Of a stretch of 47,246 bases of DNA, positions 353 through 13,457 are shown in pieces (the first letter of the stretch is position 1; each line of letters begins with the position of its first letter). The notes below the pieces were generated by a model. The model saw nothing but the letters and a program-made list of their open reading frames with translations, searched no databases and was not told where the DNA came from. The stretch spans positions 1-47,246 of the forward strand of contig JAUVTV010000001.1 in assembly GCA_030601305.1 (NCBI GenBank), in the 5' to 3' direction. The DNA comes from Candidatus Eiseniibacteriota bacterium (GTDB taxonomy: Bacteria; Eisenbacteria; RBG-16-71-46; CAIMUX01; WJJG01). Both the position numbers and the translations under genes were made by a program.

Positions 353-3019
353 ATGTCCGAGGATCCCGGCCGTCTACAGCGTTTCTTCGGCTCGGTGGAA
401 GAGGCCGCCCGCCCCGGGTGGCGCTGGCTCCTGCTCCTCGTCGGATGGATCCTCGCACGCAACCTCCTGGAAGGCATTCTCGAACACCCGCACCAGATGG
501 GCTTCGACTGGCGCGGGGAGATCTCGTTCGCGATGTTCTTCCTTCACTTCCCGCTCTTCTACCTCGCGCTCTTTGTCGTCACGGCGCTCTGGATTCACTG
601 GCTGAGCGGCCGATCGCTGGCGAGGGTGGCCGGCGCCGTGTCGGTGGGCTTCGCGGTTCTCCTGATCGTGCCGATCCTGGATGCGCTCGTTTCCTCGGGC
701 CGCGGCTACGACCTGCGCTATCTGGTCGGCTTCGAAGGGATCTTCTTCAGATTCTGGGATCCCACCGCGGCGCATCCCGCGATCTCGCCGGGGCAGCGCG
801 TGGAGGTCGTCCTCGCCTGCGTGCTGTGCGCAGCCTATGTCTACGCGTCCCGACGGGGTGTGCAGCCATCGGTTCCCGGCGCGATCCTCCGCGCGACACT
901 TGCCGTGGCCGGGTTCTTCGTGCTCGCAGCGCTTCTCGGCGCCTGGCCCTCGCTCTTTGCGCAATGGCTCTATCCCAAGGCGACCCCGTTGGCGGACCCG
1001 AACATGACCGCCTTTCGCGGCCCGGGTCTCGTGCCGGGCGAGGGCCGGCGTCTGGCCCTGGTGGTCGCAATGCCTCTCCTGCTCGCCCTGCCGCTCTTCC
1101 TTCAGCGAATGCGCCCCGATCGCGTGGCGGGGGTGCTGCGTGCGATGAGCTGGTCCCGCCTCTTCTACTACACGGGCCTGGTTCCCGCGGGCGTATGGCT
1201 CGCCTGGCTCGTCTATCACGAGCACCTGCCGCGCGCCTCCATCACACCCGTCGATGCGGTTGCCACCTGTGTGCTGTGGGTGGCGATGGTCTGCGCGTAT
1301 CTAGCGTCGCTCTTCTGGAACGATCTCAACGATCGCGAGGCCGATGCAGTCAACGAGCCGCACCGTCCGCTGCCGCGGGGGATCCTCGCGAGCCGGGACG
1401 CGAGCACGTACGCCCGCGCGGCCGCGGGTCTGGCCCTCTTCCTCTCACTGTGCGTGAGCTATCACGCGTTCCTGCTCATGATCGCGTGTCTCTTCCTCGC
1501 GTGGCTCTACTCATGTCCACCGGTGCGCCTCAAGCGGTGGCCGTTCGTAGCGACCTTCACGCTTGCGATCCTCTCGCTGATCTCGCTCGCAACCGGGTTC
1601 TCGCTCTACGCGCAGGAGATGACGCCGCTCGGCCTCCCGCGCCGGGTCGCGCTCTTCCTTCTGGTGGGCGTCACCCTGGGGTTCGTTGCGAAGGACCTCA
1701 AGGATGCTCCTGGAGATCGCCGCACGGGTGTCGTGACCCTGGCAACCCTGCTGCCGGAAAGGGGCGCGCGCATCGTAACCGCTCTACTCGTCGCGCTCGC
1801 CTTCCTACTCGTCCCGCTCATCCTGCCCATGGGCTGGATCTTCGTGTTGATCAGCGCACTCTTCGCGCTCGCCGGTGCCCTGCTGACGCTGCGCGTCCGG
1901 AGGCCCGATTCCGCTCTCCTCGTGGGGCTCCTCGTCTTCGGTGTCGTTCTGGGCTTCTTTCTCACGCGGCACAAAGAGCTCGTCCAGGAGCGCGTTCCGT
2001 CGGCCATCCGTGACCTGCAGGCGGACATGATCGCGGGTGAACAGGGTGTCCGTCTGACGCGCCTCTGGGTGGAGAACCCAAGGAACCGCGAAATGCAGCC
2101 CCCGGGACCGGGGGCGCGCGAGCGACTCACCGTCTTTCGCGATCTCACGTCGCGAGCCCAAGAGCAATGCACGCTTTGGCCGGCCTGGGAGGAGAGGTTG
2201 GGATGGCTGCGCGTGCAGGCCGGCAGCTTCCTTGGCCCGGCACGAAACGCCGATGAAAGAAACCGGGCGCAGGCCATCTGGAGCGACCTGGGTCGCCTCC
2301 AGATGATCCGTCCCTCGCGCGCGGCCTACTGGGACGCGCAGGTCTCGCTGGCGCAGCGCTGGGAGGGATGGGAGCGGGGGTTCTTGGCGTGCACGCAGGC
2401 GCTCGCGCTGGGCCTGCGACCCGGGGACTTCCTCCGCAACCGGGCGGCGCTCCGTCTGGCCCGGGGCGCGGGCGGCTGGCCGGCGCCCGAGTTGAACGCG
2501 GGAGATCTGGCCGCCATTGGCCGTGACCTCGCGGGAGCGTTTCTCTACGGCGGCCAGCGGACAACGCGCTGGGTCCTGCTCGGAGACTGGCTGGCGACGA
2601 TCGGGGAACGAACCCGCGCGCAGGAGGCCTACCGCGAGGCGCTCCGCACCGACGTGCGAAGTGTGGACGGGTGGAGCGGCCTCGGACAGACGTTTTGCGC
2701 CGCGGGGGAACTGGAGGACGCGAGGGTCGCGTACGAGGAGGCGCGGGGGCTGGATCCATTCGATCCCTGGGTGCTCAACAACCTCGGCGTCGTGCTGCGC
2801 GATCTCGGTCGCCCGGAGGAAGCGCGCTTCCGGTTTCGGGAAGCGCACCAATGTGGCCGGCGGTTGATCGAGCCGCTCTACAACTTGGGCCGGACCTGCG
2901 AGCTGCTGGGGCGTCCGGACGAAGCGCGCCAGTGGTACGAACGGGGGCGCGCCGTACGCCCGGGATTCCCGCCGCTCGAAGATGCGCTGCGAGCCCTCGA
3001 CGAGAGAGAGGGCCCATGA
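353..3019 (+). CDS. UbiA-family prenyltransferase domain with an extra N-terminal polytopic membrane domain (~300 aa) and C-terminal TPR repeats (888 aa).
   Basis: UbiA motif 1 is NDLNDREADAVNEPHRPLPRG and motif 2 is KDLKDAPGDRRTGVVTLA, both within hydrophobic segments. The C-terminal ~250 aa carry TPR-like repeats (e.g. AYEEARGLDPFDPWVLNNLGVVLRDLGRPEEA and LYNLGRTCELLGRPDEARQWYERG). Confidence 0.8.
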   Translation: MSEDPGRLQRFFGSVEEAARPGWRWLLLLVGWILARNLLEGILEHPHQMGFDWRGEISFAMFFLHFPLFYLALFVVTALWIHWLSGRSLARVAGAVSVGFAVLLIVPILDALVSSGRGYDLRYLVGFEGIFFRFWDPTAAHPAISPGQRVEVVLACVLCAAYVYASRRGVQPSVPGAILRATLAVAGFFVLAALLGAWPSLFAQWLYPKATPLADPNMTAFRGPGLVPGEGRRLALVVAMPLLLALPLFLQRMRPDRVAGVLRAMSWSRLFYYTGLVPAGVWLAWLVYHEHLPRASITPVDAVATCVLWVAMVCAYLASLFWNDLNDREADAVNEPHRPLPRGILASRDASTYARAAAGLALFLSLCVSYHAFLLMIACLFLAWLYSCPPVRLKRWPFVATFTLAILSLISLATGFSLYAQEMTPLGLPRRVALFLLVGVTLGFVAKDLKDAPGDRRTGVVTLATLLPERGARIVTALLVALAFLLVPLILPMGWIFVLISALFALAGALLTLRVRRPDSALLVGLLVFGVVLGFFLTRHKELVQERVPSAIRDLQADMIAGEQGVRLTRLWVENPRNREMQPPGPGARERLTVFRDLTSRAQEQCTLWPAWEERLGWLRVQAGSFLGPARNADERNRAQAIWSDLGRLQMIRPSRAAYWDAQVSLAQRWEGWERGFLACTQALALGLRPGDFLRNRAALRLARGAGGWPAPELNAGDLAAIGRDLAGAFLYGGQRTTRWVLLGDWLATIGERTRAQEAYREALRTDVRSVDGWSGLGQTFCAAGELEDARVAYEEARGLDPFDPWVLNNLGVVLRDLGRPEEARFRFREAHQCGRRLIEPLYNLGRTCELLGRPDEARQWYERGRAVRPGFPPLEDALRALDEREGP

Positions 3020-3561
3020 GGCCCCGGAGGCAACCTATGGAACCGGAAGAGCTCATTGCCCGCCTGAACCTGCGCCCGCATCCGCGTGAGGGTGCCTATT
3101 TCGCCGAAACCTACCGCTCCGGGGAAGAGGTCGCGGCCCGAGCTTTGCCACCGCGCTACGCCGGAGCGCGGCCCCTGGGAACCGCGATCTATTTCCTGAT
3201 CACGGCCGACCACTCCTCCGCACTCCACCGCCTCCAGACCGACGAGATCTACCACTTCTACCTGGGGGATCCGGTCGAGTTGCTCCAGCTATCAGGCGAT
3301 GGAACGGGACGCCTCTTCACGCTCGGTCCGAACCCTTTCCTGGGGATGCAGCCCCAGCTGGTCGTTCCGCGGGGGGTTTGGCAGGGCGCACGCCTGCGGC
3401 CCGGGGGGCGCTTCGCGCTACTGGGAATGACCACCGCCCCCGGATTCGACTACGCCGACTACGAGCACGGCGATCGCCAGCAGCTCCTGGCGGCCTACCC
3501 TCAGTTCTCGGAGGCCATCCGGGCGTTGACCGCGGAGCAATCTCCCGAGCAGCGCGGATGA
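3016..3561 (+). CDS. Cupin-superfamily protein, DUF985 (Cupin_5) family, 181 aa.
   Basis: Contains LNLRPHPREGAYFAETYRS...TAIYFLI...SALHRLQTDEIYHFYLGDP...APGFDYADYE. The ATG at 3016 overlaps the upstream TGA (ATGA). The longer track ORF from 2671 lies inside the previous gene, so I reject that start. Confidence 0.85.
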   Translation: MRPRRQPMEPEELIARLNLRPHPREGAYFAETYRSGEEVAARALPPRYAGARPLGTAIYFLITADHSSALHRLQTDEIYHFYLGDPVELLQLSGDGTGRLFTLGPNPFLGMQPQLVVPRGVWQGARLRPGGRFALLGMTTAPGFDYADYEHGDRQQLLAAYPQFSEAIRALTAEQSPEQRG

Positions 3562-3642
3562 CTTCCGCCACGGGCCTCTCCGCCTCCTCACGACGGCCGT
3601 TCATGAATGGTCCGGGCTCGGCGCGTGGCAAAAGCCGCGATC

Positions 3643-3670
3643 TTGACAAATACGAATATTCGCGTATGGT
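3643..3670 (+). promoter_or_regulatory. Putative sigma-70 promoter with an embedded palindromic operator upstream of the ArsR-family gene.
   Basis: TTGACA at 3643-3648, a 16-nt spacer, then TATGGT at 3665-3670. A perfect 10-bp palindrome, CGAATATTCG (3653-3662), sits in the spacer. The site lies in a local AT-rich island. Confidence 0.45.
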
Positions 3671-3693
3671 GATATTTGAAATGCGAGGTACCC

Positions 3694-4065
3694 ATGCGCA
3701 AACCCACGGCCGACGAACTGGAGCTGCTGCACAGCGAGCTGTGTAGCGTGCTCGGCGACCCGACCCGCATCGCCATCTTGTACGAGCTGGCGGACGGGCC
3801 GCGCAATGTCACGAGCATCGTGGAGGCGCTGGGGGTCCACCAGGCCACGGTCTCGCGGCACTTGCGCATCCTGCGCGAGCGGGGGTTGGCGCGAGCTGAG
3901 CGGGACGGAAACCAGGTCTTCTACGAGCTGGCGGAGCCGCGGGTCCTGGATGTGCTCACGCTGATGCGGGAGGTCCTCACGGACATCCTGCGGGAGCGGG
4001 GGGAGAAGGTGCGGCGGATCGTCGCGGCGGCCGGGCGCCGAAAGCCAGGTCGGCGGTCAGCTTGA
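3694..4065 (+). CDS. ArsR/SmtB-family winged-helix transcriptional regulator.
   Basis: Contains LGDPTRIAILYELADGPRNVTSIVEALGVHQATVSRHLRILRERGL. I prefer the ATG at 3694 (GAGGT 4 nt upstream) over the track's TTG at 3676, which would abut the -10 box. Confidence 0.85.
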   Translation: MRKPTADELELLHSELCSVLGDPTRIAILYELADGPRNVTSIVEALGVHQATVSRHLRILRERGLARAERDGNQVFYELAEPRVLDVLTLMREVLTDILRERGEKVRRIVAAAGRRKPGRRSA

Positions 4066-4090
4066 GAGGTGCAAGACGGAGGATCGGACG

Positions 4091-4636
4091 ATGGCAGTCG
4101 ATGTAGCCACTGAGCTGGCGGAGCTGAAAAAGAAGGTCGACGAGATGCAGCCGGGAGCGCTGCCCAAGCTCTCGATGGTCGTCTTCTCGGGAGACCTGGA
4201 CAAGCTGATTGCGGCGCTGATCATCGCGACCGGCGCGGTGGCGATGGGCATGCAGGCCGTGCTCTTTTTCACCTTCTGGGGCACCGCGGCGCTCCGCGAC
4301 CCCAAGGTCAACGTGGGTGGCAAGGACTTCATGTCCAAGATGTTCGGCTGGATGCTGCCCAAGGGGCGGGGCAAGCTGAAGCTTTCCAACATGCACATGG
4401 CGGGCATGGGCACCGCCATGCTCAAGGACCTCATGCGCAAGAAGAATGTCCCTTCGCTGGACCAGCTCTTCGAGATGGCGGCGCAACTCGGCGTGCAGAT
4501 CAAAGTGTGTGAGATGTCGATGGACTTGATGGGTTTCAAGCGCGAGGAGCTCATCGACTACCCGAACAAGGAATTCTGCGGCGTGGCGACGTTCCTGGCG
4601 GACGCCAAGGAGTCCAGCGTTCAGCTCTTCATCTAG
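4091..4636 (+). CDS. DsrE/DsrF/DsrH-like family protein (soluble, PF13686-type), 181 aa.
   Basis: Contains MVVFSGDLDKLIAALIIATGAVAMGMQAVLFFTFWG and a conserved-looking Cys in IKVCEMSMDLMG. A GGAGGA RBS lies upstream. Confidence 0.8.
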   Translation: MAVDVATELAELKKKVDEMQPGALPKLSMVVFSGDLDKLIAALIIATGAVAMGMQAVLFFTFWGTAALRDPKVNVGGKDFMSKMFGWMLPKGRGKLKLSNMHMAGMGTAMLKDLMRKKNVPSLDQLFEMAAQLGVQIKVCEMSMDLMGFKREELIDYPNKEFCGVATFLADAKESSVQLFI

Positions 4637-4649
4637 CACGGGAGGATTC

Positions 4650-4889
4650 ATGGCGGAGCACGATGCAGTCAAGGTTCTCGATCTCAAGGGACTGCCCTGT
4701 CCCATGCCGGTCGTGAAAATCAGTCAGGAAATCGGCTCGATCGATGTCGGCCAGGTTGTCGAGGTGCACACTACCGACCCCGGTTCCTTGGCGGACTTCC
4801 CCGCCTGGGCGAAGAGCTCGGGCAACGAGATCGTCGAGACCAAGCAGGAGGAAGGACTCATCCGCATCTTCGTCAAACGCGTGAAGTAG
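4650..4889 (+). CDS. TusA/SirA-family sulfurtransferase, 79 aa.
   Basis: Contains LDLKGLPCPMPVVK, which carries the CPxP active-site motif. A GGGAGGA RBS lies upstream. Confidence 0.9.
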   Translation: MAEHDAVKVLDLKGLPCPMPVVKISQEIGSIDVGQVVEVHTTDPGSLADFPAWAKSSGNEIVETKQEEGLIRIFVKRVK

Positions 4890-4911
4890 GCGTGCCCGCG
4901 GTTCGTTTCGC

Positions 4912-5637
4912 ATGGGAGGAACCATGGCTGGATGGATCGGCTACTTCATCATGGTGCCCATGGTGTACATCGCCGTGGCGGTCTTCGTCATTGGAATCCT
5001 GGCGCGCGTCGCGCGCCTGCTGGCGTCGCCGAAGCACCCGTTCCCCCTGCGGCTCTACCCGGTGCCGTCATCGGCCCGGCTGTGTGCGCTGAAGGAAACC
5101 TTCCTCATGCCGCAGGTGCGCGCGCACGCGCCGCTCTTCTGGGTCTTCCTGATCCTCTTCCACATTGCCTTTCTGTTCCTCTTCCTGGGACATCTCGATC
5201 TGATCCCGGGCATCCACCTGATGCCGCCCGATTCGGTGCACATGCTCGGACATGGCTTCATCGGGCTGACCGTCACCCTGGCGACGTTCTACTTCCTCCT
5301 GCGGCGCATGCGCGGAACGCTGCGGGAGATCTCCGTGCTGGGGGACTACCTGCTCCTGCTCCTGCTCATCCTGCTCTTCCTCACCGGGGACACGGTCAGC
5401 TGGGCCAACTCCTGGAATCCGGATGGCTTCGTGATCGGCAAGGTCGAATTCGGCGACTACCTCCAGTCGCTGCTCGGCTTCACTTTCGCCAACCCACGTG
5501 ATCTGTTGCCGGGATCGCACTACATCGTGGTGGTGCTGCATGTCCTCCTGGCCAATCTGTTCCTGATCCTCTTCCCCTTCACCAAGATCATGCATACCTT
5601 CTTCGCCCTGCCGATGAACCGTCTGAGGAGAGGCTGA
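4912..5637 (+). CDS. NarI/DsrM/HdrE-like membrane b-type cytochrome (nitrate reductase gamma family).
   Basis: About 5-6 TM helices with spaced His residues (HAPLFWVFLILFHIAFLFLFLGH; HYIVVVLHVLL...KIMH). It is followed 1 nt later by a CCG-domain Fe-S protein. An alternative ATG at 4924 sits just after GGGAGGA. Confidence 0.75.
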   Translation: MGGTMAGWIGYFIMVPMVYIAVAVFVIGILARVARLLASPKHPFPLRLYPVPSSARLCALKETFLMPQVRAHAPLFWVFLILFHIAFLFLFLGHLDLIPGIHLMPPDSVHMLGHGFIGLTVTLATFYFLLRRMRGTLREISVLGDYLLLLLLILLFLTGDTVSWANSWNPDGFVIGKVEFGDYLQSLLGFTFANPRDLLPGSHYIVVVLHVLLANLFLILFPFTKIMHTFFALPMNRLRRG

Positions 5638-5638
5638 T

Positions 5639-6910
5639 ATGGACGTCGCGCTACAGGAGACGCTCAAAGGTCTGTTCCAAACCAAGCTGAATCGCGAGAT
5701 GCGCCTCTACCTGGACACTTGCGCGCGCTGCGGTGTCTGCATCGAGGCCTGCCACGTCTATGCCTCGCGCCCCGAGGCGCGCTACACCGCGGTGGGGCGC
5801 GCGGAAGTCATCCGGCGTCTCTTTCGCCAGTACTTCAAGGCGGAGGGCGGAATCGCGCCCTGGTTGGGTGAGACGATCGCACTGGATGACCCGACCCTCG
5901 AGAAGGTCTACGAAGCGGCCTACACCTGCACCGGCTGCCGGCGCTGCATGACCTACTGTCCCTTTGGCATCGACACGCAGATGATCCAGTCGATCGGCAA
6001 GCTCCTCCTGATCGGGGCCGATCGGGAACCGAAGCTGCTGACCATGCTCGCTGTCAAGGATGCGGCGACCACCGAGATCTACACGGAGACCAAGGCCGAC
6101 TTCGAGACGGCGATGAAGAACCTCGAGGCCGAGGTGATCGAGAAGTGGCGTTCGGAAGCCGGGGAGAAGGCGATTCCGGTGGGGGCGATCGGCTCGGACG
6201 TCCTCTATGTCGCCCTTGCCGGCAAGCACTCGATCATCCCCGCGGCGGCCATCATGAACGCCGCCCAGGAGAACTGGTCGCTCTCCTATTTCGAGGCGGT
6301 CAACTTCGGCGCGTTCGTCGGCAATCCCGAGAAGACCCAGGAGATCTCAGCGCGCATCATCGACGAAGCCACGCGTCTCGGCGCCCGCGAGGTGGCCGTC
6401 TGCGAGTGCGGCACCGCCTACCGGGTGCTGAAGCATCAGATCGGAAGTCAACCCTTCGAGGTGATCAGCTTCGTCGAGCTGATCGATCGCTACTTGGAGG
6501 CGGGTCGCATCCGGTTGCGGCCGGGCACCCTCGAAGGCCGGGTCACGTATCACGACCCATGTCAGATGGGGCGCAACGGCGGGGTCCTCGAAGCCCCCCG
6601 GCGGGTCCTCCGCCATCTCGGCGCGGAATTCGTCGAGATGGAGCCCAATCGCGGCGACAACTGGTGTTGCGGCGGGGGCGGCGGGCTGGTGGCGATGGGC
6701 GAGAAAGACTTTCGCATGTGGTCGGCCCGCGTGAAGGCCGATCAGGTGAAGGCCACCGGAGCCTCCGTCGTGGCCACCGCCTGCGAGAACTGTCACGCGC
6801 AGCTCTCCGATCTCAACGAGCACTACGAGTTGGGGACGCGCGTCGCGTTTCTCTCCAGCTTGGTCGCCGACGCGCTAGCCGGCCGTGGCAGAAGTCATCC
6901 GGGCGGCTAA
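5639..6910 (+). CDS. HdrD/DsrK-like iron-sulfur oxidoreductase with two 4Fe-4S ferredoxin motifs and a CCG domain, 423 aa.
   Basis: Ferredoxin motifs are CARCGVCIEACHV and CTGCRRCMTYCPF. Cys-rich CCG-type motifs are HDPCQMGRNGG and NWCCGGGGG. Confidence 0.85.
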   Translation: MDVALQETLKGLFQTKLNREMRLYLDTCARCGVCIEACHVYASRPEARYTAVGRAEVIRRLFRQYFKAEGGIAPWLGETIALDDPTLEKVYEAAYTCTGCRRCMTYCPFGIDTQMIQSIGKLLLIGADREPKLLTMLAVKDAATTEIYTETKADFETAMKNLEAEVIEKWRSEAGEKAIPVGAIGSDVLYVALAGKHSIIPAAAIMNAAQENWSLSYFEAVNFGAFVGNPEKTQEISARIIDEATRLGAREVAVCECGTAYRVLKHQIGSQPFEVISFVELIDRYLEAGRIRLRPGTLEGRVTYHDPCQMGRNGGVLEAPRRVLRHLGAEFVEMEPNRGDNWCCGGGGGLVAMGEKDFRMWSARVKADQVKATGASVVATACENCHAQLSDLNEHYELGTRVAFLSSLVADALAGRGRSHPGG

Positions 6911-6912
6911 CG

Positions 6913-7545
6913 TCACAAGTACTGACTCGTGATCTGCACGACATCGATGAAGAGGTAGTTCATCCGGCCGATCAGGAGCGATATACGACCCATCACCGTG
7001 TACCCGAACGCGGCGCCGAATCCCAGCATCAGAAACCAAATGCCCACCCGCGATACCACGCCGACGGCACGCTTGTGCTCAATCGAGAAGTAGAAGTAGA
7101 TCAGCACCGACAGCACGCCGACCATCATGATCAGGTTGTCGACGGGGGTGAAGTTGCCGCCAATCGGATGCAGGATCGTCTTGCCGACTTGCGGAACGAC
7201 CTCTCCCTGCAGTTTCTGAACCATGAAGATGCCGACGTAGTACGCGATGTAGACGGCCAGTGAGAGGCGCGCCATCCAGGCGATCCTCGGGATGTAGCGC
7301 GTGTAGAGATTGAGGCCCAGGAGCAGAGGGATGAGCAGGTGGGCATTGCCCGAGAAGTCGGCGGTCAGCGGTCGGATCATGTTGGGAACCAAGGTGTTGG
7401 TCGAGACGATCCCGATGTAATACCCTAGGGAGACACCGGCGAAGAGGCTCTCGGCGAACCGGAAGAACGGATTGTCCTTGTACAGGAAGCTGAAGATACA
7501 GAGCGTCAGGAAAGCTCCGAGCCAGACGCCGAGCAGTTCGGACAT
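6913..7545 (-). CDS. Polytopic membrane protein (~6 TM), unknown family. Module gene D, 210 aa.
   Basis: Hydrophobic throughout (MSELLGVWLGAFLTLCIFSFLY...). A GGGGGAG RBS lies 7 nt upstream and the gap from the preceding gene is 21 nt. Confidence 0.75.
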   Translation of the reverse strand: MSELLGVWLGAFLTLCIFSFLYKDNPFFRFAESLFAGVSLGYYIGIVSTNTLVPNMIRPLTADFSGNAHLLIPLLLGLNLYTRYIPRIAWMARLSLAVYIAYYVGIFMVQKLQGEVVPQVGKTILHPIGGNFTPVDNLIMMVGVLSVLIYFYFSIEHKRAVGVVSRVGIWFLMLGFGAAFGYTVMGRISLLIGRMNYLFIDVVQITSQYL

Positions 7546-7566
7546 CAGGACGCTCCCCCTGTTCTT

Positions 7567-8451
7567 CTACTGTTCAAGACGCGCCTCCCTCTTCTCCCGT
7601 CGGCGAATCAGGAAGTAGACACCGTTCCCGTAGAGGATGAAAAGCATGATGATCGCGTGGTCGACGGTCTGCGCATCCATGCCCTTCATCGCGTTGTATT
7701 CCCCGGCCTTGCTGTAGATGGGCTCAAGGGCCGGATAGCGGTCGATCAGCAGTTGTTCGTACTCGGAGGCCCCTTTCAGCCCTCCCAGCAGGCCCAGCAT
7801 CTGGCCCGAGTCGAGGAAGGCGTAGTACTTCGGCGCCGACACGGCGGTGCAGCCCACCGCGACCGGCGTGCCGAACTGGGCATTGACCAGGTTGGCCCAC
7901 CACTCGCCGATGACGTTCGTCGCGATGCTCACCACCAGCGCGATGTTCGCGTAGTTGAGCACCTGCGTCATCAGCGGCAGCTCATCGAGGGGCGTGCCCT
8001 CCTGATCGCTGGGAAAGACCCCGGAGAAGGCGACGCCCATCTGCTTCATGGTCGCTTGGGCACCGTCCTTGTAACCCAGGAAGACGTAGTCCTCGCCCTC
8101 GACGAGGTCGGGGTACTGGGGAACGATCTTCTCCAGCGCCTCGCCGGCCATGGTGACGCCCCCGAGCGGGAAGAGGGCCACGACGACCACCTTGATCCCG
8201 CGCGTGAAGCAGTGGCGCAAGACCGCCTCGGCCATCGGGTCGCATTCGGGCGCGGTCGTGGGGCCGTAGTCAAAGGAGACGAGTACCGCATCATCGCCGC
8301 CGAGGCTCTCGACCTTGGCAAAGAAGTTCTCCACCGGGGGCGTCGTGGAGACGGCGAAGCCGATGGGCTTCAGGATCGGGATGAGCGTCCCGAGGGCGAT
8401 CAGCAGATAGACGATCCGGCGATCGACTTGCACGAGTCGCTCGAGATTCAC
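7567..8451 (-). CDS. Bitopic membrane protein (N-terminal TM, ~230-aa soluble domain, C-terminal TM), unknown family. Module gene C, 294 aa.
   Basis: GTG start preceded by GGAGG with 6-nt spacing. TM segments are IVYLLIALGTLIPIL and AIIMLFILYGNGVYFLI. I found no nucleotide-binding motif. Confidence 0.75.
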   Translation of the reverse strand: MNLERLVQVDRRIVYLLIALGTLIPILKPIGFAVSTTPPVENFFAKVESLGGDDAVLVSFDYGPTTAPECDPMAEAVLRHCFTRGIKVVVVALFPLGGVTMAGEALEKIVPQYPDLVEGEDYVFLGYKDGAQATMKQMGVAFSGVFPSDQEGTPLDELPLMTQVLNYANIALVVSIATNVIGEWWANLVNAQFGTPVAVGCTAVSAPKYYAFLDSGQMLGLLGGLKGASEYEQLLIDRYPALEPIYSKAGEYNAMKGMDAQTVDHAIIMLFILYGNGVYFLIRRREKREARLEQ

Positions 8452-8461
8452 CGCGCGCCTC

Positions 8462-9160
8462 CTACTTCTCCCGAATTCCCAGATAGGAACGCTCGATTCC
8501 CAAGATCACCCGCAGCGAGAGCGCCGCGGCCCCGAGCGCCGCGCCGATGATGATGCCGCGCTGCGCGGCGGCGTTCGGCACCGCCATGATCCACTCCGTC
8601 ACCCACGGTAGGAAGGTCTCGCCGTTCGGCAGCCAGCTGAAGACGTATTCGCCGAGCGGCGTGCGCCCCAGCATCACGATGAAGGCCGCCGTCAAGAGGA
8701 TCGTGGCCTCGACGTTGCGCACGCGGAAGGCGCGAAAGGCGGCCGAGGCGACGTAGAACGCGAGCAGGCTGAACATGGCCGCCTGCAGCGGATTGAACAG
8801 ATGGCGGGTCATCCAGTAGAACGGCGTGTCACTGCCGTCGGGTGCCGTGAGGATGCTCTGGAAGGGACCCACGCGCGCGGCGCTCAGGATTCCGAAGGCG
8901 CCCATGACGAACAGCCCAAGCAGCAAGCTGACTGCGAAGGGCCAGCCGGGTTTGCGTCGTTCGATCTTTCGGATGTTGCCCTGGACGACGTTGACCACGC
9001 CCAGCAGCAGGGCGAAGCCGGTGATGATGACCATGTACTGTTCGACGCGATCCCGCACGAAGGCGACACCCCAGACCCGCTCGGTGAGGAAGAACGTGAC
9101 GATCGGAACCAGGCCGACGATGAAGGTCAGCATGAGTGGCAGCCTGAGCTTCCAGAACAT
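8462..9160 (-). CDS. Polytopic membrane protein (~6 TM), unknown family. Module gene B, 232 aa.
   Basis: Hydrophobic segments run throughout the protein. GGAGGA lies upstream and the gap from gene A is 21 nt. Confidence 0.75.
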   Translation of the reverse strand: MFWKLRLPLMLTFIVGLVPIVTFFLTERVWGVAFVRDRVEQYMVIITGFALLLGVVNVVQGNIRKIERRKPGWPFAVSLLLGLFVMGAFGILSAARVGPFQSILTAPDGSDTPFYWMTRHLFNPLQAAMFSLLAFYVASAAFRAFRVRNVEATILLTAAFIVMLGRTPLGEYVFSWLPNGETFLPWVTEWIMAVPNAAAQRGIIIGAALGAAALSLRVILGIERSYLGIREK

Positions 9161-9181
9161 GGGTCTGCGCGTCCTCCGGCG

Positions 9182-9967
9182 TTACTGGATCGTCATGAAA
9201 TCCCGGAACCAGTGGATCCCGAAGATCTCGAGCAGGATTCCTACAATGATGTACAGGATGAGTCCCGCCTTCGTGAAATCCTGTCCCTTGATGCTGCCCA
9301 CCATGGCCGGTTCACCGGAAAGGTAGGCGCCCGCGGCGAAAAGCTCTTCGCCCATCAACGTGAAGTCGCAGACCACCGCGAAGAACGGCAGCTGCGTGAC
9401 CTCGGCCGTCCCGGCGATCTGGATCGCGCCCACCGATTGACCGGTTTCGGCCATGAGGAGCGACTCGGCGTGGAAGGCGCCGATGAGGAAGATCGCGGCG
9501 GGCTTGTCGCGAACCATGAGGCCGGTCACCGAGGCGCTGAAGGCGAACTGATCGTAGGTGACATAGTGCACCATCTCGGGGTGGAACAGCTCGGGCCGTC
9601 CCGCCTGCAGGTAGGCCTCGTGCACCGTGTCGCGCGTGGCGGCGAAGGTGAGCGGGTCCTTGTTGGGCACGTCGAGGTCGACGGTGTAGCGCGCGGTCAA
9701 GCCGGCCACGTGCCGCAGCACCGCGAGGCTGGCGATCGTCTGGATGTCATCCAACGTGCCCCCACCGGGAAGGTAGAGCACTTTCCTGCCCAGCTCGGTG
9801 GCTCGGCCCACAGCTTCTTCCATCGCTGCGATGCCCGCGATGCGGCGGATGAAGAGTTTCCTTCCGCGGCGGGCGAGGTTGATGAAGAGGAGGACAAAGA
9901 AACAGAAGACCAGGAGCACGACAAGAGGGGCGCCACACCGGCTGGGATCGTACCAGGTCTCTGGCAT
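9182..9967 (-). CDS. Bitopic membrane protein (N-terminal TM, ~190-aa soluble domain, C-terminal TM), unknown family. Module gene A, 261 aa.
   Basis: GGGAGGA RBS upstream. TM segments are PLVVLLVFCFFVLLFINLA and AGLILYIIVGILLEIFGI. Its topology and some local motifs are shared with gene C. Confidence 0.75.
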   Translation of the reverse strand: MPETWYDPSRCGAPLVVLLVFCFFVLLFINLARRGRKLFIRRIAGIAAMEEAVGRATELGRKVLYLPGGGTLDDIQTIASLAVLRHVAGLTARYTVDLDVPNKDPLTFAATRDTVHEAYLQAGRPELFHPEMVHYVTYDQFAFSASVTGLMVRDKPAAIFLIGAFHAESLLMAETGQSVGAIQIAGTAEVTQLPFFAVVCDFTLMGEELFAAGAYLSGEPAMVGSIKGQDFTKAGLILYIIVGILLEIFGIHWFRDFMTIQ

Positions 9968-10078
9968 CCGGTCCTCCCGACGGCGGGTAGGGGACCCGCC
10001 AAGAAACCTCCTCCGCGTGATTCGATCCTAGCTGCTCACGGCACGGCACTCAAGCGGATCCTGGGACGGGTTCCAGAC

Positions 10079-10588
10079 CTAACTCGATGCGAGGCCGAGA
10101 AGGCGGGTGACGATTGCCGCCGCTTCCTGGGGATCCGCTGCTCGGTGGAGCAGCGGGGAGGAGGGACACGCGGGCGCCTCGAAGCGCCAGGAGCCCAGGA
10201 GCACCACCGGCTTGCCTACCTTGAGCGCGAGGGCGATCTCGGAGAGCGTGCCGTGCGCGCCGGAGACGGCGACGACGACCTCGGATGAGACCACGTTGAC
10301 GAAGTTTCGCGCGTAGGAGATCCCGGTGAAGATGGGGATCTGAATGAAGTCGTTCGGCGGCGTCTCGGCTGCATTGTGTCCCGGCAGGATGCCGATCGTG
10401 AGACCGCCGGCCTCGCTGGCGCCCCGAGATGCGGCCTCCATGACGCCGCCGCCGCCGCCGCAAAGCACCGCCACGCCCGCACCGGCCAGCAGACGGCCGA
10501 GTTGCCGCGCTTGCGCGTAGACTTCAGCGTCACAGCTTCCCGGACCCATGACGCCCACGATGCGGCGCCGCGCGGGCGCATCCGTCAT
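10079..10588 (-). CDS. TIGR00725-family protein (LOG / lysine-decarboxylase-like Rossmann fold), 169 aa.
   Basis: Contains IVGVMGPGS...LGRLLAGAGVAVLCGGGGGVMEAASRGASEAGGLTIGILP...TGISYARNFVNVVSSEVVVAVSGAHGTLSEIALAL. The start overlaps the upstream stop (ATGA). Confidence 0.8.
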   Translation of the reverse strand: MTDAPARRRIVGVMGPGSCDAEVYAQARQLGRLLAGAGVAVLCGGGGGVMEAASRGASEAGGLTIGILPGHNAAETPPNDFIQIPIFTGISYARNFVNVVSSEVVVAVSGAHGTLSEIALALKVGKPVVLLGSWRFEAPACPSSPLLHRAADPQEAAAIVTRLLGLASS

Positions 10589-12504
10589 GGGTCGCGGGCT
10601 CCTTCTTCGGCGGCTCTGGAGCGGATCTCGATTCCCTTCGTGTGGAGCGCAATCCGCCCTTTGATGCTCTCGTCATCGGGATCGATGCGCAGAACTTCTT
10701 TCCAGTACTCCACCGCCTTCTCCAGATTACCGAGGAGCTCATAGACGAGCGCCGTCTGCCGGTGGGCTTCGCGATGATCGGGATCGAGTCGCCTTGCGAC
10801 GGCCAGGAGATCGAGCGCCTCCTGCGTCTGGTTCATCTCCTTGTACAGCATCGCCAGGTTGACGCGGATGCCCGCGTGCTGCACGTGACGGGATGCGCCT
10901 TCCGTGAGGATCGCGATGGCCTGGGTACGATTCCCCAGCTCGCGCTGCACAAAGGCGAGGTTCATGCGGGCTGTGAGCCGATCCGGGTCGAGGTCGAGGG
11001 CGCGTTCGAAAGCCAGCCGCGCGCTGCTGTATTTCTGCTGGCGCATATACAGCCTGCCCAGCCGGTAGTGGGCGTCGAACCAGTCCGGTTCCCGCGCGCA
11101 CAGATCGCGAAGCAGCCTCTCGGCCTCGTCGTCCCGCTCGCGCGCGGCGTAGTATTGGGCGAGATTGACCTCCGACCTGAGCGCCAGCTCCTTCAGGGTC
11201 AAACCGGCGGTCCAGTAGTTCCAGATCGGGGAGAGGCGCATCCCGGGGTTCTTGTTGCGGAGCGCGGCCCGCTGGGTGCGCCACGCATCGTCTTCGTAGC
11301 TCTCCAGAATGGCGGACATCGGCATCTCTTCGCTGAAGAGCTCGGTCAGCACGCGACCCTCCATGTCCGCGGGCACCGGCAGGCCCAGCAGGGCGAGAAG
11401 CGTCGGAACCAGATCGAAGACGGTCCCTTGCGTGACGATCGCCGCCGGGTCATCCGCGTACTTCCGCGACGCCACCTGAGGCCCCTTGGCCAGCAGGATC
11501 CCCTTGGAGCGGTGCCACCGCTCGGGCCTCCCGGGTCCGCGCCCGTCGGGGCGCGCGGCATCCGCGAGGAAACCGTGGTCGGAGAAGACGATCACCGTGG
11601 TGGTGTCGTCGCACAGCTCGAGGAGTTCACCGAGAAGCTCGTCCTGGTAGCGATAGAACGCCGTCACGGTCCGGGCGGTGGGTTGGGAAAAGTGACCGAT
11701 CGTCTCGATGCCCTTGAAGCCCACGGCGACGACGTCGGGACCGTCCGTCCGGATGAGATGCCGCGCCACGGTGGCGGCATTGCGCATGCCTTGGTAGGCG
11801 TAGCGGAAGCGGGTGACGAGATCGGAGGGATCCTCTCCCGACGCCTGGGCGAATTGCTCCTCGGAGACATCGAGGAAGTCGCGGGCCGTGGCGTAGGAAA
11901 CCTCATCAGGGGTTCCGCAGAGCCGCGCGATCTCGGCCGCTCGCTCCGGTGGCCACACGCACGCATCTTCGGCTGTCTCGCACCGCGCGGGGTCGTCGAT
12001 GAGCGCGTCCGAGACCATCACCCCGTGCACTGGTTCGGCGGGAGCGGTCATCCACCAGCCGACCACGCAGACGCTCACTTCCCGCTCGCTAAGGATGTTC
12101 CAAAACGCCTTGCTGCGGCGTGCGTTGGCCGTTGCGTGCCGCGGTGCGTTGCCCTCCGTTTCCGGCAAGAACCAGCCCGTGATGCCGTGCTCGTCAGGTC
12201 CCTTGCCCGTGGCGATGGTGTTCCACAAGATCGGTGAGACGAACGGGCGCACACTGCCGAGCGGTCCGTGGGAGCCGTCGCGGATGAGCCCGCGCAGGTT
12301 GGGGAGTCCGTCGCCCGAAAGAAGCGGCCGGATGAAATGCCAGTCAGCGCCATCGATTCCGACGAGGAGCACGCGCGGGGCACGGTGGCGGGCGCGCTCG
12401 CAACCACCGCCGGCGAGCAACGCGAGGGACAGGAAGACCGTCAGCGCAACGAACGCGCCGATCACTTCGGGACGCCGGAACATCTTCCGCCGGCAGTGGA
12501 GCAT
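10585..12504 (-). CDS. Alkaline-phosphatase-superfamily protein (type I phosphodiesterase / nucleotide pyrophosphatase-like) with an N-terminal anchor and C-terminal TPR repeats, 639 aa.
   Basis: Contains RVLLVGIDGADW...SPILWNTIATGKGPDEHGITGW...VIVFSDHGF, followed by about 6 TPR-like repeats. The ATG at 12504 is preceded by GGAGGG. I reject the 951-aa track ORF extension because it runs through the UbiA gene in another frame. Confidence 0.8.
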   Translation of the reverse strand: MLHCRRKMFRRPEVIGAFVALTVFLSLALLAGGGCERARHRAPRVLLVGIDGADWHFIRPLLSGDGLPNLRGLIRDGSHGPLGSVRPFVSPILWNTIATGKGPDEHGITGWFLPETEGNAPRHATANARRSKAFWNILSEREVSVCVVGWWMTAPAEPVHGVMVSDALIDDPARCETAEDACVWPPERAAEIARLCGTPDEVSYATARDFLDVSEEQFAQASGEDPSDLVTRFRYAYQGMRNAATVARHLIRTDGPDVVAVGFKGIETIGHFSQPTARTVTAFYRYQDELLGELLELCDDTTTVIVFSDHGFLADAARPDGRGPGRPERWHRSKGILLAKGPQVASRKYADDPAAIVTQGTVFDLVPTLLALLGLPVPADMEGRVLTELFSEEMPMSAILESYEDDAWRTQRAALRNKNPGMRLSPIWNYWTAGLTLKELALRSEVNLAQYYAARERDDEAERLLRDLCAREPDWFDAHYRLGRLYMRQQKYSSARLAFERALDLDPDRLTARMNLAFVQRELGNRTQAIAILTEGASRHVQHAGIRVNLAMLYKEMNQTQEALDLLAVARRLDPDHREAHRQTALVYELLGNLEKAVEYWKEVLRIDPDDESIKGRIALHTKGIEIRSRAAEEGARDP

Positions 12505-12539: not shown

Positions 12540-13457
12540 TCAGAGCACGCTCTGGCCCAGCAGTCCGAGGATGAGCAGGAGCCCGAAGGCCATCTGCAGC
12601 TGAGCCGTGCGCATGTCCAGGGTCACCAGGCCCCCCTGCATGGCATCCCCGCTCTGCGCGATGCCGGCTCTCATCTGGCGAATGGCGCCGAAGGCGAGCG
12701 GCAAGCTGAGCAGTGCCAAGAGCGCCGTCGGAACGATGAGCTTCGCCGCCACCAGCGCGATGAGGCTCAGGTAGGCCAGCGCCAGAAGCGCGATGTAGAC
12801 CGCCTGCGACCCGCGCCGTCCCAGGAGCAGGGCCAGGGTGGTGATCGCGGCTTCGCGGTCGGTGTCCAGGTCGCGCAGGTTGTTGGCGTGCAGGATCGCC
12901 CAAATGAGGAGTCCCACCGGGACACCGTAGCAGACCGGTGTCCAGGAGAGCCGCCCAGTCTGGACGACGTAGCTGCCCACGGTGATGCCCACGCCGAAGG
13001 CGAGGAAGACCGCGACGTCGCCCAGCGCGCGGTACTTGAGCGCCACGGGCGCCCCGGTGTAGCCCACGCCCAGCAGGAGACCCAGTGCCACGACCGGCAG
13101 CACCGCCGGACCCACCGCGATGAAGAAGTGGACCGCGATCGCGGCCGCGACCGCGGAGAGCACGAGGGCCTCGGCAAGGATCTCCCCGGGTGCCATCCGT
13201 CCGCTGACGAGCATCCCGCGGGAGGCGCCCCGCGTGTCTTCGCGGTCGACGCCCTTGCGGAAGTCGAAGTAGTCGTTCAGCAGGTTCGACGAGGCATGGA
13301 AGCAGGCGGACCCGACGGCGGCCAGGATCAGGTGGAGCACGTTCAGCCGGGCGCCATCCTGGATCACGGCCACCAGACCGCCCAGGATTGCGGGTATGAC
13401 GGAAGTGGGGAACGCGAACGGCCGGGTTGCATTCCACCACAGGCCCAGTCGGCTCAT
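12540..13457 (-). CDS. UbiA-family prenyltransferase, MenA-like (1,4-dihydroxy-2-naphthoate polyprenyltransferase-like), 305 aa.
   Basis: Motifs NDYFDFRKGVD and NNLRDLDTDREAAITTLA occur in a protein with 8-9 hydrophobic helices. Confidence 0.8.
   Translation of the reverse strand: MSRLGLWWNATRPFAFPTSVIPAILGGLVAVIQDGARLNVLHLILAAVGSACFHASSNLLNDYFDFRKGVDREDTRGASRGMLVSGRMAPGEILAEALVLSAVAAAIAVHFFIAVGPAVLPVVALGLLLGVGYTGAPVALKYRALGDVAVFLAFGVGITVGSYVVQTGRLSWTPVCYGVPVGLLIWAILHANNLRDLDTDREAAITTLALLLGRRGSQAVYIALLALAYLSLIALVAAKLIVPTALLALLSLPLAFGAIRQMRAGIAQSGDAMQGGLVTLDMRTAQLQMAFGLLLILGLLGQSVL

Follow-up and report, generated by a model that had tools for sequence, protein, structure and literature searches.

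Two-transmembrane-helix proteins with a large periplasmic domain are found in the GldF/GldG-type ABC-2 auxiliary pair and among the Wzz-type polysaccharide co-polymerases. In the BcsA-BcsB synthase, a cytoplasmic alpha/beta domain between transmembrane (TM) helices and a TM-anchored periplasmic alpha/beta domain are placed around a polytopic channel. In EmrE-like small multidrug resistance (SMR) pairs, an opposite lysine/arginine (K/R) bias in neighbouring genes is expected after duplication and fixation in opposite orientations, and the partners are clearly homologous. Here we compare with these systems a locus from a 47,246-nucleotide (nt) stretch of Candidatus Eiseniibacteriota DNA (contig JAUVTV010000001.1; hereafter the window). 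It consists of four adjacent minus-strand genes, taken from the list of open reading frames (ORFs): gene A (positions 9182-9967, 261 amino acids (aa), ATG start), gene B (8462-9160, 232 aa, ATG start), gene C (7567-8451, 294 aa, GTG start) and gene D (6913-7545, 210 aa, ATG start). A, B, C and D very probably form one conserved multi-subunit inner-membrane complex of an undescribed family, here called the DUF6754 module.

Like the GldFG and Wzz proteins, C is predicted to run N-in, TM helix, periplasmic domain, TM helix, C-in; a polytopic partner adjoins it, and glycan-synthesis genes lie nearby in some lineages. However, there is no match to ABC_transp_aux, Wzz or ABC2_membrane, C is compact and Rossmann-like, and no ATPase is encoded. 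As in BcsA-BcsB, a TM-held alpha/beta domain is predicted on the cytoplasmic face (A) and on the periplasmic face (C). Unlike in that synthase, no hidden Markov model (HMM) of glycosyltransferase family 2 (GT2), of other glycosyltransferases or of PilZ was matched, Foldseek returned no GT-A fold for A, and the channel would be built from separate subunits.

Gene order and duplication of the cassette

The ORF list agreed with the original prediction of four packed minus-strand genes, with spacers of 21 nt (A-B), 10 nt (B-C) and 21 nt (C-D). A Shine-Dalgarno sequence for each gene had also been claimed, and a purine-rich run was indeed read from the minus-strand sequence 5' of each start. GGGAGGA (9972-9978) lies 4 nt 5' of the A start codon, GGAGGA (9172-9177) within the A-B spacer and GGGGGAG (7553-7559) within the C-D spacer. 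The GGAGG that precedes C (8458-8462) overlaps the TAG stop of B, an arrangement that allows translational coupling.

The four ORFs are genuine genes and not chance ORFs, because each has hundreds to thousands of protein homologues (at 90% identity, C has 1219 clusters, B over 4309 and A over 6054). The closest relatives of the window proteins are 95-97% identical over their full length; P0001, for instance, is 96% identical to C across all 294 aa. The nearest genomes are Candidatus Eisenbacteria metagenome-assembled genomes (MAGs), with A identity up to 76%. The GC content of the window is approximately 62-70%, and the plus-strand ORFs antisense to the four genes (7657-8550, 8801-10288 and 6145-7263; 297-495 aa) are typical high-GC artefacts. 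A promoter and terminator scan gave nothing beyond shuffled expectation. An Rfam scan of 6700-10800, which might have named the substrate through a riboswitch, found no Rfam family. A had no match in the plasmid database PLSDB, and no link to mobile elements was found.

Conservation of the gene order was analysed using one genome per GTDB species, which identified A homologues at 62 loci (in Eisenbacteria, Zixibacteria, Kofleriaceae, an Armatimonadia MAG, an Ignavibacteria MAG, UBP2 and others). B, C and D were located by tblastn directly 3' of A and in the same order in every sufficiently long locus, with no exception. An exhaustive HMMER search with the B profile also revealed three more distant contigs (L066, L067 and L069), in which a DUF6754 gene is followed by B and by C-sized and D-sized genes, stops and starts overlapping between the genes of the cassette. 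The proposal that the four genes are one module, to be checked by synteny, was thus borne out by the A-B-C-D order in 62 of 62 genomes and in the three distant contigs.

Tandem copies of the cassette (ABCD-ABCD) occur at 19 of the 62 loci; two copies are present in L024, L027-L029, L032, L033, L035, L036, L040, L045, L049 and L053, among others, and three in L051. Copies within a genome share 45-55% identity, compared to 77-88% between copies at the same position in different genomes. As this pattern holds for all four subunits, the cassette was duplicated once, as a unit, with both copies kept. Judged by these identities, the tandem copies are old paralogues retained in parallel across genomes.

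It is highly improbable that A to D are merely co-transcribed membrane proteins that form no complex. A solitary B homologue exists (P0498, 617 aa, without A, C or D in the Planctomycetes-like contig L068), which favours that view and weighs against a single complex, but the gene order is invariant across phyla and the cassette was duplicated as a unit whose four subunits diverged in parallel. Gaps of 10-21 nt, or the overlapping stops and starts of other lineages, fit coupled translation. C and D are moreover fused in frame in P0085 (497 aa, from a single Joint Genome Institute (JGI) metagenome contig of 3.4 kb), which may be natural or may instead stem from a deletion or from the assembly. 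Finally, residues 139-205 of A were poorly ordered when A was modelled alone, which suggests a missing partner.

Membrane orientation of the subunits

A hydropathy scan located TM segments at residues 8-35 and 230-255 of A and at 11-35 and 265-283 of C. It gave six TM segments in B and four strong plus two weaker ones in D, so that the earlier estimate of about six helices is right for B and fair for D. Topology was deduced from K/R counts over family alignments, together with fusions and extensions in homologues. In A, 4.0 K/R were counted past TM1, compared to 1.8 ahead of it. In many A homologues (for example, P0330 and P0356), TM1 follows a signal peptide and an FN3-like domain, so the N-terminus of A is placed outside. 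The predicted layout of A is therefore an N-out TM helix (approximately 8-35), a cytoplasmic Rossmann-like alpha/beta domain (approximately 40-225) and a second TM helix (approximately 230-255). For C, the counts were 3.6 and 4.0 on the termini vs. 0.9 and 1.05 on the domain side, and C homologues carry Arg-rich N-terminal extensions. C is predicted to have an N-in TM helix (11-27), a periplasmic Rossmann-like alpha/beta domain (approximately 38-247), a C-terminal TM helix and an R/K-rich cytoplasmic tail.

B is predicted to be a six-TM polytopic protein with both termini inside. Its loops 2 and 4 are rich in K/R, and in the B homologue P0489 TM1 is preceded by a lipoprotein signal peptide, a periplasmic stretch and one additional TM helix, consistent with an N-in orientation. 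Many B homologues (P0411, encoded at 4375-6243 of L067, P0375, P0446, P0497/P0498 and others) have 100-400 aa inserted in periplasmic loop 3, which joins TM3 and TM4; one of the inserted segments is a WD40/PD40 beta-propeller. D is polytopic with approximately six TM helices and is probably N-out with loops 1, 3 and 5 in the cytoplasm; K/R density is higher in these short loops. In the C-D fusion P0085, the last TM helix of C (out to in) stands in for TM1 of D and is followed by the KDNPFF loop of D. An EF-hand insertion is also found in D.

From these sequence features, the A domain is predicted to be cytoplasmic and the C domain periplasmic, making A and C mirror images. With B N-in and D N-out, B and D are apparently mirror images too, the C-terminal end of D being ambiguous. 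The original prediction had A and C as bitopic proteins of the same topology. Both do share the TM-domain-TM layout, but their orientation in the membrane is opposite. As the two domains lie on opposite faces, any symmetry of the complex would be inverted and not parallel.

The arrangement offers an evolutionary analogy with the EmrE-like SMR pairs. By K/R bias, A is out-out, C in-in, B in-in and D out-out, and the K/R bias together with the domain fusions indicates, by computation, partners inserted in opposite orientation for both A/C and B/D. Unlike in the SMR pairs, neither A and C nor B and D share significant similarity, and homology between partners was not detectable for either pair. 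BLASTP of A against C gave E = 2.3 across 5 residues. HHalign, run on full-length proteins and on domains in local, low-mact and global modes, gave a probability of 1.6-1.9% (P = 0.026), and a cross-family HMM search with reversed and shuffled controls gave approximately 0 bits. The local HHalign match was the AVLRH helix; a low-stringency alignment was co-linear over 167 columns with a score that was not significant. By eye, the motifs AVLRH, [TG]Y[DK], GxTA and Gx[IL]KG are co-linear in A and C and sit at equivalent strand-to-helix junctions. For B against D, BLASTP gave E 6.8 and HHalign a probability of 1%. Internal repeats in B and D were not significant, the best being the N-terminal half of D against its C-terminal half (probability 12%).

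An ancient duplication of A and C within a pseudo-symmetric complex had been proposed, to be abandoned if the two proteins failed to align significantly. With a BLASTP E of 2.3, an HHalign probability below 2% and an HMM score of approximately 0 bits, the idea fails at the sequence level. It survives only as a structural hypothesis, and now necessarily in an inverted form.

Families, folds and likeness to known systems

A is a full-length member of the Pfam family DUF6754 (PF20539; E = 1.2e-105, 352.7 bits against a cutoff of 27, residues 5-257 of 261), a family without assigned function. A literature search on DUF6754, PF20539 and PF13941 (the family of an accessory protein described below) found no papers in the library searched. 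Scans of B, C and D against Pfam and NCBIfam, as single proteins and as 40-45 individually scanned family members, gave nothing at or above threshold; below it there was noise (Nucleos_tra2_N, TrbL, CrgA and MAB_1171c). The earlier statement that no familiar motif can be recognised agreed with the profile scans, in which none of A to D matched an ATP-binding cassette (ABC), major facilitator superfamily (MFS), resistance-nodulation-division (RND), redox or peptidase family at or above threshold. Profiles of all four families were also searched against 177,635 PDB sequences. A and B gave no match, and C and D had matches at chance level only (best E 0.67 for C; for D a single one, 6el2_A, E 0.73).

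The AlphaFold2 model of C was confident (predicted local distance difference test (pLDDT) 92.6, predicted TM-score (pTM) 0.89) and comprised a TM helix at each end, the C-terminal one long, with a six-stranded beta-alpha Rossmann-like domain between them. Foldseek matched this model to generic Rossmann domains in PDB only (best E 4.3e-4, TM-score 0.30), among them eIF2B subunits, TtuA, GT-B halves, UDP-GlcNAc 2-epimerase and transhydrogenase dIII. The A model was weaker (pLDDT 68, residues 139-205 disordered). Its order of TM helix, alpha, repeated beta-alpha and TM helix matches that of C, and its PDB matches were generic Rossmann domains with nothing under E 0.03.

Conservation is highest in A (median identity 56% over the 62 genomes, approximately 50% between phyla). 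Its mean column identity is 77%, and at the strand ends many Asp, Glu, His, Arg, Thr and Cys positions are invariant. When the alignments were placed on the models, the invariant residues of both the A and C domains sat just past the beta-strands, at the strand C-terminal ends, a position which in these models is the usual ligand edge of a Rossmann-like fold. B is highly conserved in its C-terminal half (motifs FRAFRVRN, PNxAAQRG and GAALGAA), and D has the conserved motifs YKDNPF, YFFFS and FGAxFGYTVMGR; the invariant residues of B and of D include neither Cys nor His. The exhaustive HMMER search collected B homologues in 2508 clusters at 50% identity, and the members of 10 diverse cluster representatives were all unnamed environmental proteins.

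These conserved sites bear on the possibility that the module is a membrane-anchored enzyme complex, in which the A domain, and possibly that of C, would act on a membrane or envelope substrate, for example by transfer or modification of a lipid-linked sugar or lipid head group, while B and D hold the lipid. The high conservation of A, even between phyla, its invariant polar residues and Cys at strand ends, and the location of the invariant residues of both domains at the classic Rossmann active-site edge would all suit an enzyme, as would the GT-B halves and epimerases among the fold matches of C. Genes for glycosyltransferases, UbiA prenyltransferase, alkaline-phosphatase-superfamily proteins and sugar-nucleotide enzymes also lie nearby in several lineages. 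However, neither A nor C matches an enzyme family HMM or a PDB sequence, and the Foldseek matches are non-specific (E of 4e-4 or more for C and 0.03 or more for A). No glycine-rich nucleotide-binding or DxD-type motif was recognised when the A and C alignments were read by eye, and a periplasmic Rossmann domain would have cytoplasmic nucleotide cofactors out of its reach. We consider an enzyme complex somewhat unlikely.

Among described systems, the core of Rnf and of the Na+-translocating NADH:quinone oxidoreductase (Na+-NQR) is alike in having a pair of small polytopic subunits, here B (approximately six TM helices, N-in) and D (four to six, N-out), apparently in opposite orientation, and a TM-anchored subunit with a periplasmic domain, here C. 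In some lineages the N-terminus of a further protein, E (see below), weakly resembles the RnfC_N barrel-sandwich domain. Unlike in that core, there is no match to Rnf-Nqr, FMN_bind or Fe-S families and no conserved Cys or His in B and D; C is Rossmann-like, ABCD has no NADH- or ferredoxin-oxidising subunit, and A is an extra bitopic subunit with a cytoplasmic domain. Thus neither the six-TM Rnf-Nqr signature with its Fe-S Cys nor, in C, the FMN_bind signature was found.

ABC importers with a membrane-tethered substrate-binding domain are alike in their two different TM subunits (here B and D) and in an alpha/beta domain on each face. By contrast, ABCD has no Walker A or B motif, no ABC signature and no ABC_tran or permease HMM match, and each cassette encodes one cytoplasmic-domain subunit, anchored by two helices. 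ABC_tran was unmatched in A to D at E up to 1, and the ABC permease families (BPD_transp, ABC2_membrane, FtsX and others) were unmatched by B and D alone or by their 40-member alignments. The match of C to the periplasmic binding protein 5ix8 was weak (probability 0.41, TM-score 0.17). For the mannose class of the phosphotransferase system (PTS), the EIIC and EIID families EII-Sor and EIID-AGA were unmatched in all subunits, and genes for enzyme I (EI) and HPr occur near the module only in a Zixibacteria locus. The MotA, ExbB-ExbD and TolQR stators gave nothing over noise (one of 40 B homologues matched ExbD at E 0.29).

The likenesses to Rnf/NQR, ABC importers and GldFG/Wzz are architectural only. 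It is quite unlikely that the module is a very diverged form of such a multi-subunit system (an Rnf/Nqr-like set, an ABC-2/GldFG-like permease set or PTS mannose-type IIC/IID), beyond recognition by sequence. Two polytopic subunits of approximately 200 aa in apparently opposite orientation do recall RnfA/RnfE and NqrD/NqrE, and the periplasmic-domain subunit recalls RnfG/NqrC; E has sub-threshold matches to RnfC_N and Biotin_lipoyl (E 5e-4 to 4e-3), and in the Zixibacteria locus the cassette is preceded by genes for PTS enzyme I and HPr. A sub-threshold match to a nucleoside-transporter TM hairpin was found in 13 of 40 B homologues, but these are close relatives and their shared weak match is not independent. 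Moreover, Rnf-Nqr, FMN_bind, ABC2_membrane, EII-Sor and EIID-AGA match none of the subunits even when E values up to 1 are allowed, an invariant Cys that could serve an Fe-S centre is absent from B and D, the operon has no ATPase or redox subunit, and the C domain has a Rossmann-like and not an FMN_bind fold. A fold-level link of B and D to a known transporter class is likewise rather improbable.

In summary of these searches, the profile and structure checks that had been proposed returned only the DUF6754 label for A and generic Rossmann folds for A and C, in line with the suggestion of an undescribed system. They support the view that ABCD lies outside all characterised kinds as far as search tools show, its subunits matching no described transporter, enzyme or part of a secretion system.

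Accessory genes, neighbours and possible function

Two further conserved genes accompany the cassette in part of the lineages. E encodes a conserved soluble protein of approximately 374 aa (375 in round figures) and lies directly 5' of A in 19 of the 62 loci. Motifs such as TEGFG, GATQIRAGVxRPE and QGIFGxGGE are invariant in it. It belongs to no family, its Biotin_lipoyl and RnfC_N barrel-sandwich matches remaining below threshold, and its profile reached at best E 0.035 against PDB sequences. A role of E as a lipoylated or biotinylated carrier was discarded, the candidate residue K90 being conserved in 84% only. F (approximately 600-730 aa) is usually 5' of E and belongs to Pfam PF13941 ('MutL' in the GlmL sense), an actin-fold (ASKHA) ATPase related to hydantoinase A. 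The order F-E-ABCD is found in the double-module group, in the Armatimonadia locus L055 and in L069 (E 52% identical), that is, in at least three unrelated lineages, and E-ABCD in Kofleriaceae. F and E lie at 20-1819 in L029, 1762-5080 in L055 and 2834-5881 in L069, with further metagenome loci in L070-L149.

At least 579 E-encoding stretches were found in metagenomes, and ABCD adjoins E in 23 of the 46 E-anchored metagenome loci with enough flank. The remaining E loci have downstream either an outer-membrane-barrel-like gene with accA and DUF4388, or tolQRAB; in some loci F-E is directly 5' of tolQ-tolR-tolA-tolB. Neither E nor F was found in the window, and both are missing from the vicinity of the cassette in most loci of Eisenbacteria and Zixibacteria. 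Two candidates were rejected: the 277-aa protein that follows E in other loci is not an A homologue (HHalign probability 0.6%) and resembles an outer-membrane beta-barrel, and the 349-aa protein 5' of A in L065 is not E.

The company of E and F would suit a trans-envelope coupling or signalling scaffold, which would link a cytoplasmic machine (F and E where present) to periplasmic partners in a Tol/Exb- or FtsEX-like manner and pass energy or information instead of a substrate. The recurrence of F-E-ABCD in unrelated lineages and of E-ABCD in Kofleriaceae, the adjacency of ABCD in half of the well-flanked E loci, the position of F-E upstream of the tol genes elsewhere, and the protein-interaction domains (FN3, WD40 propeller and EF-hand) present as insertions in D and in the periplasmic portions of A and B are all consistent with it. 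We nevertheless regard a scaffold as unlikely. The window and most Eisenbacteria and Zixibacteria loci lack E and F nearby, so the core works without them in cis, and E and F also occur beside unrelated genes (outer-membrane protein, AccA and DUF4388). There is no similarity to the MotA/ExbB, ExbD or FtsX families, and the conserved pockets of both soluble domains suggest ligand binding.

In the window, three minus-strand genes lie upstream of A: a SLOG/LDcluster4 (LOG-like) protein (10079-10588), a Phosphodiest (alkaline-phosphatase superfamily) and TPR protein (10585 to approximately 12600; 4 nt of overlap between its stop and the SLOG start) and a UbiA prenyltransferase (12585-13457). The order UbiA - Phosphodiest/TPR - SLOG - ABCD is also present in L063, and these genes may form a longer operon with ABCD. 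A second UbiA gene, a UbiA-TPR fusion, is located at 413-3016 on the plus strand. On the other side, a NarI-like membrane protein (Nitrate_red_gam) and a CCG/4Fe-4S protein, a DsrMK/HdrD-like pair (4912-6910, plus strand), converge on ABCD with a stop 2 nt from the D stop; this pair is not conserved beside ABCD elsewhere.

Other lineages have other neighbours. In Zixibacteria the order is HPr - PTS EI - PGI/PMI - ABCD - NTP_transferase - MetK - AhcY; in L050 the HPr, enzyme I and bifunctional PGI/PMI genes upstream (2817-5926) and the sugar-1-phosphate nucleotidyltransferase gene downstream (8989-9963) flank the cassette, and the downstream genes recur in L025 and L047. A second Eisenbacteria group has GT1 - GT4 - sigma54 activator - methyltransferase - ABCD, and other Eisenbacteria have a SIS_2 - GT1 - GHMP kinase - NTP_transferase cluster within 4-8 kb. 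At three loci from different lineages, D is closely followed on its own strand by TldD/PmbA metalloprotease genes (L065 11605-12240, L150 12544-15461 and L069 14305-17069). Sugar-nucleotide, glycan and envelope metabolism is the one recurring theme among the neighbours, and a weak one.

We tentatively prefer the possibility that the complex works as a transporter or translocase, with an envelope or sugar-type substrate handed between pockets on the two membrane faces. B and D, with approximately 12 TM helices, would form the conduit, and the tethered A and C domains would be the donor and acceptor pockets on opposite faces. The cargo carried across the inner membrane would be a small envelope precursor, either hydrophilic or lipid-linked; a sugar-phosphate, a nucleotide-sugar or a polyprenyl-linked compound is a candidate substrate on weak evidence from context. 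The cassette has no redox subunit. No ATPase gene is present between 6913 and 10588, so the energy for transport would come from a gradient or from trapping on the far side. Where other lineages encode F and E, these would probably dock on the cytoplasmic domain of A and energise or regulate the complex. Several features fit a transporter: the six plus six polytopic TM helices without catalytic motif or family, the paralogous expansion of the whole module, the variable periplasmic add-ons (a WD40 propeller in B loop 3, FN3 on A) and the EF-hand in D. The matches of the C fold to Rossmann domains that bind sugar-phosphates or nucleotide-sugars (eIF2B, GT-B halves and UDP-GlcNAc 2-epimerase) speak weakly for a sugar substrate.

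Several points weigh against a transporter. Homology evidence for transport was found in none of A to D, and the fold of B and D might be unrelated to transporters. Ion-coupled carriers usually have conserved acidic residues within the membrane, and the alignments of B and D contain none. The conservation of the A domain, in which dozens of polar residues are invariant, points to an enzyme or a partner hub more than to a passive binding site; an enzyme, or a hub on which E and F dock, is about as compatible with it as a transporter. The fold matches are generic, with TM-scores of approximately 0.3. Neighbouring genes vary between lineages, which makes the sugar and envelope link weak, and this context may reflect the shared ancestry of closely related genomes.

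A more specific proposal can be made from the mirrored topology, although we consider it quite improbable. A-B and C-D would be ancient duplicates of a 'bitopic plus polytopic' pair fixed in opposite orientations, giving an inverted heterodimer of pairs whose homologous Rossmann-like pockets face the cytoplasm (A) and the periplasm (C), and in some lineages the GlmL-like actin-fold ATPase would drive it through E as a novel adaptor. We know of no transport system that uses an actin-fold (GlmL-like) ATPase as motor. If true, this would be a new transporter architecture, in which inverted-repeat alternating access is extended to tethered soluble domains.

If the complex is what it seems to be, the DUF6754 module would be a widely distributed inner-membrane machine (at least 2,500 clusters at 50% identity for B alone), present in Eisenbacteria, Zixibacteria, Myxococcota (Kofleriaceae), Armatimonadota, Ignavibacteria-like bacteria and further lineages, most of them uncultured. 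Three of the four subunits lack a functional annotation, as do E and F, and B, C, D and E have no family at all, so annotation pipelines pass the whole system over. It is a tractable target, as the C domain models confidently and the 3-kb operon suits heterologous expression. With a Rossmann-like domain on either face and polytopic subunits in opposite orientation, the complex could represent a new structural class, and knowing the substrate could show how an envelope or sugar-type precursor crosses the membrane in these little-known phyla.

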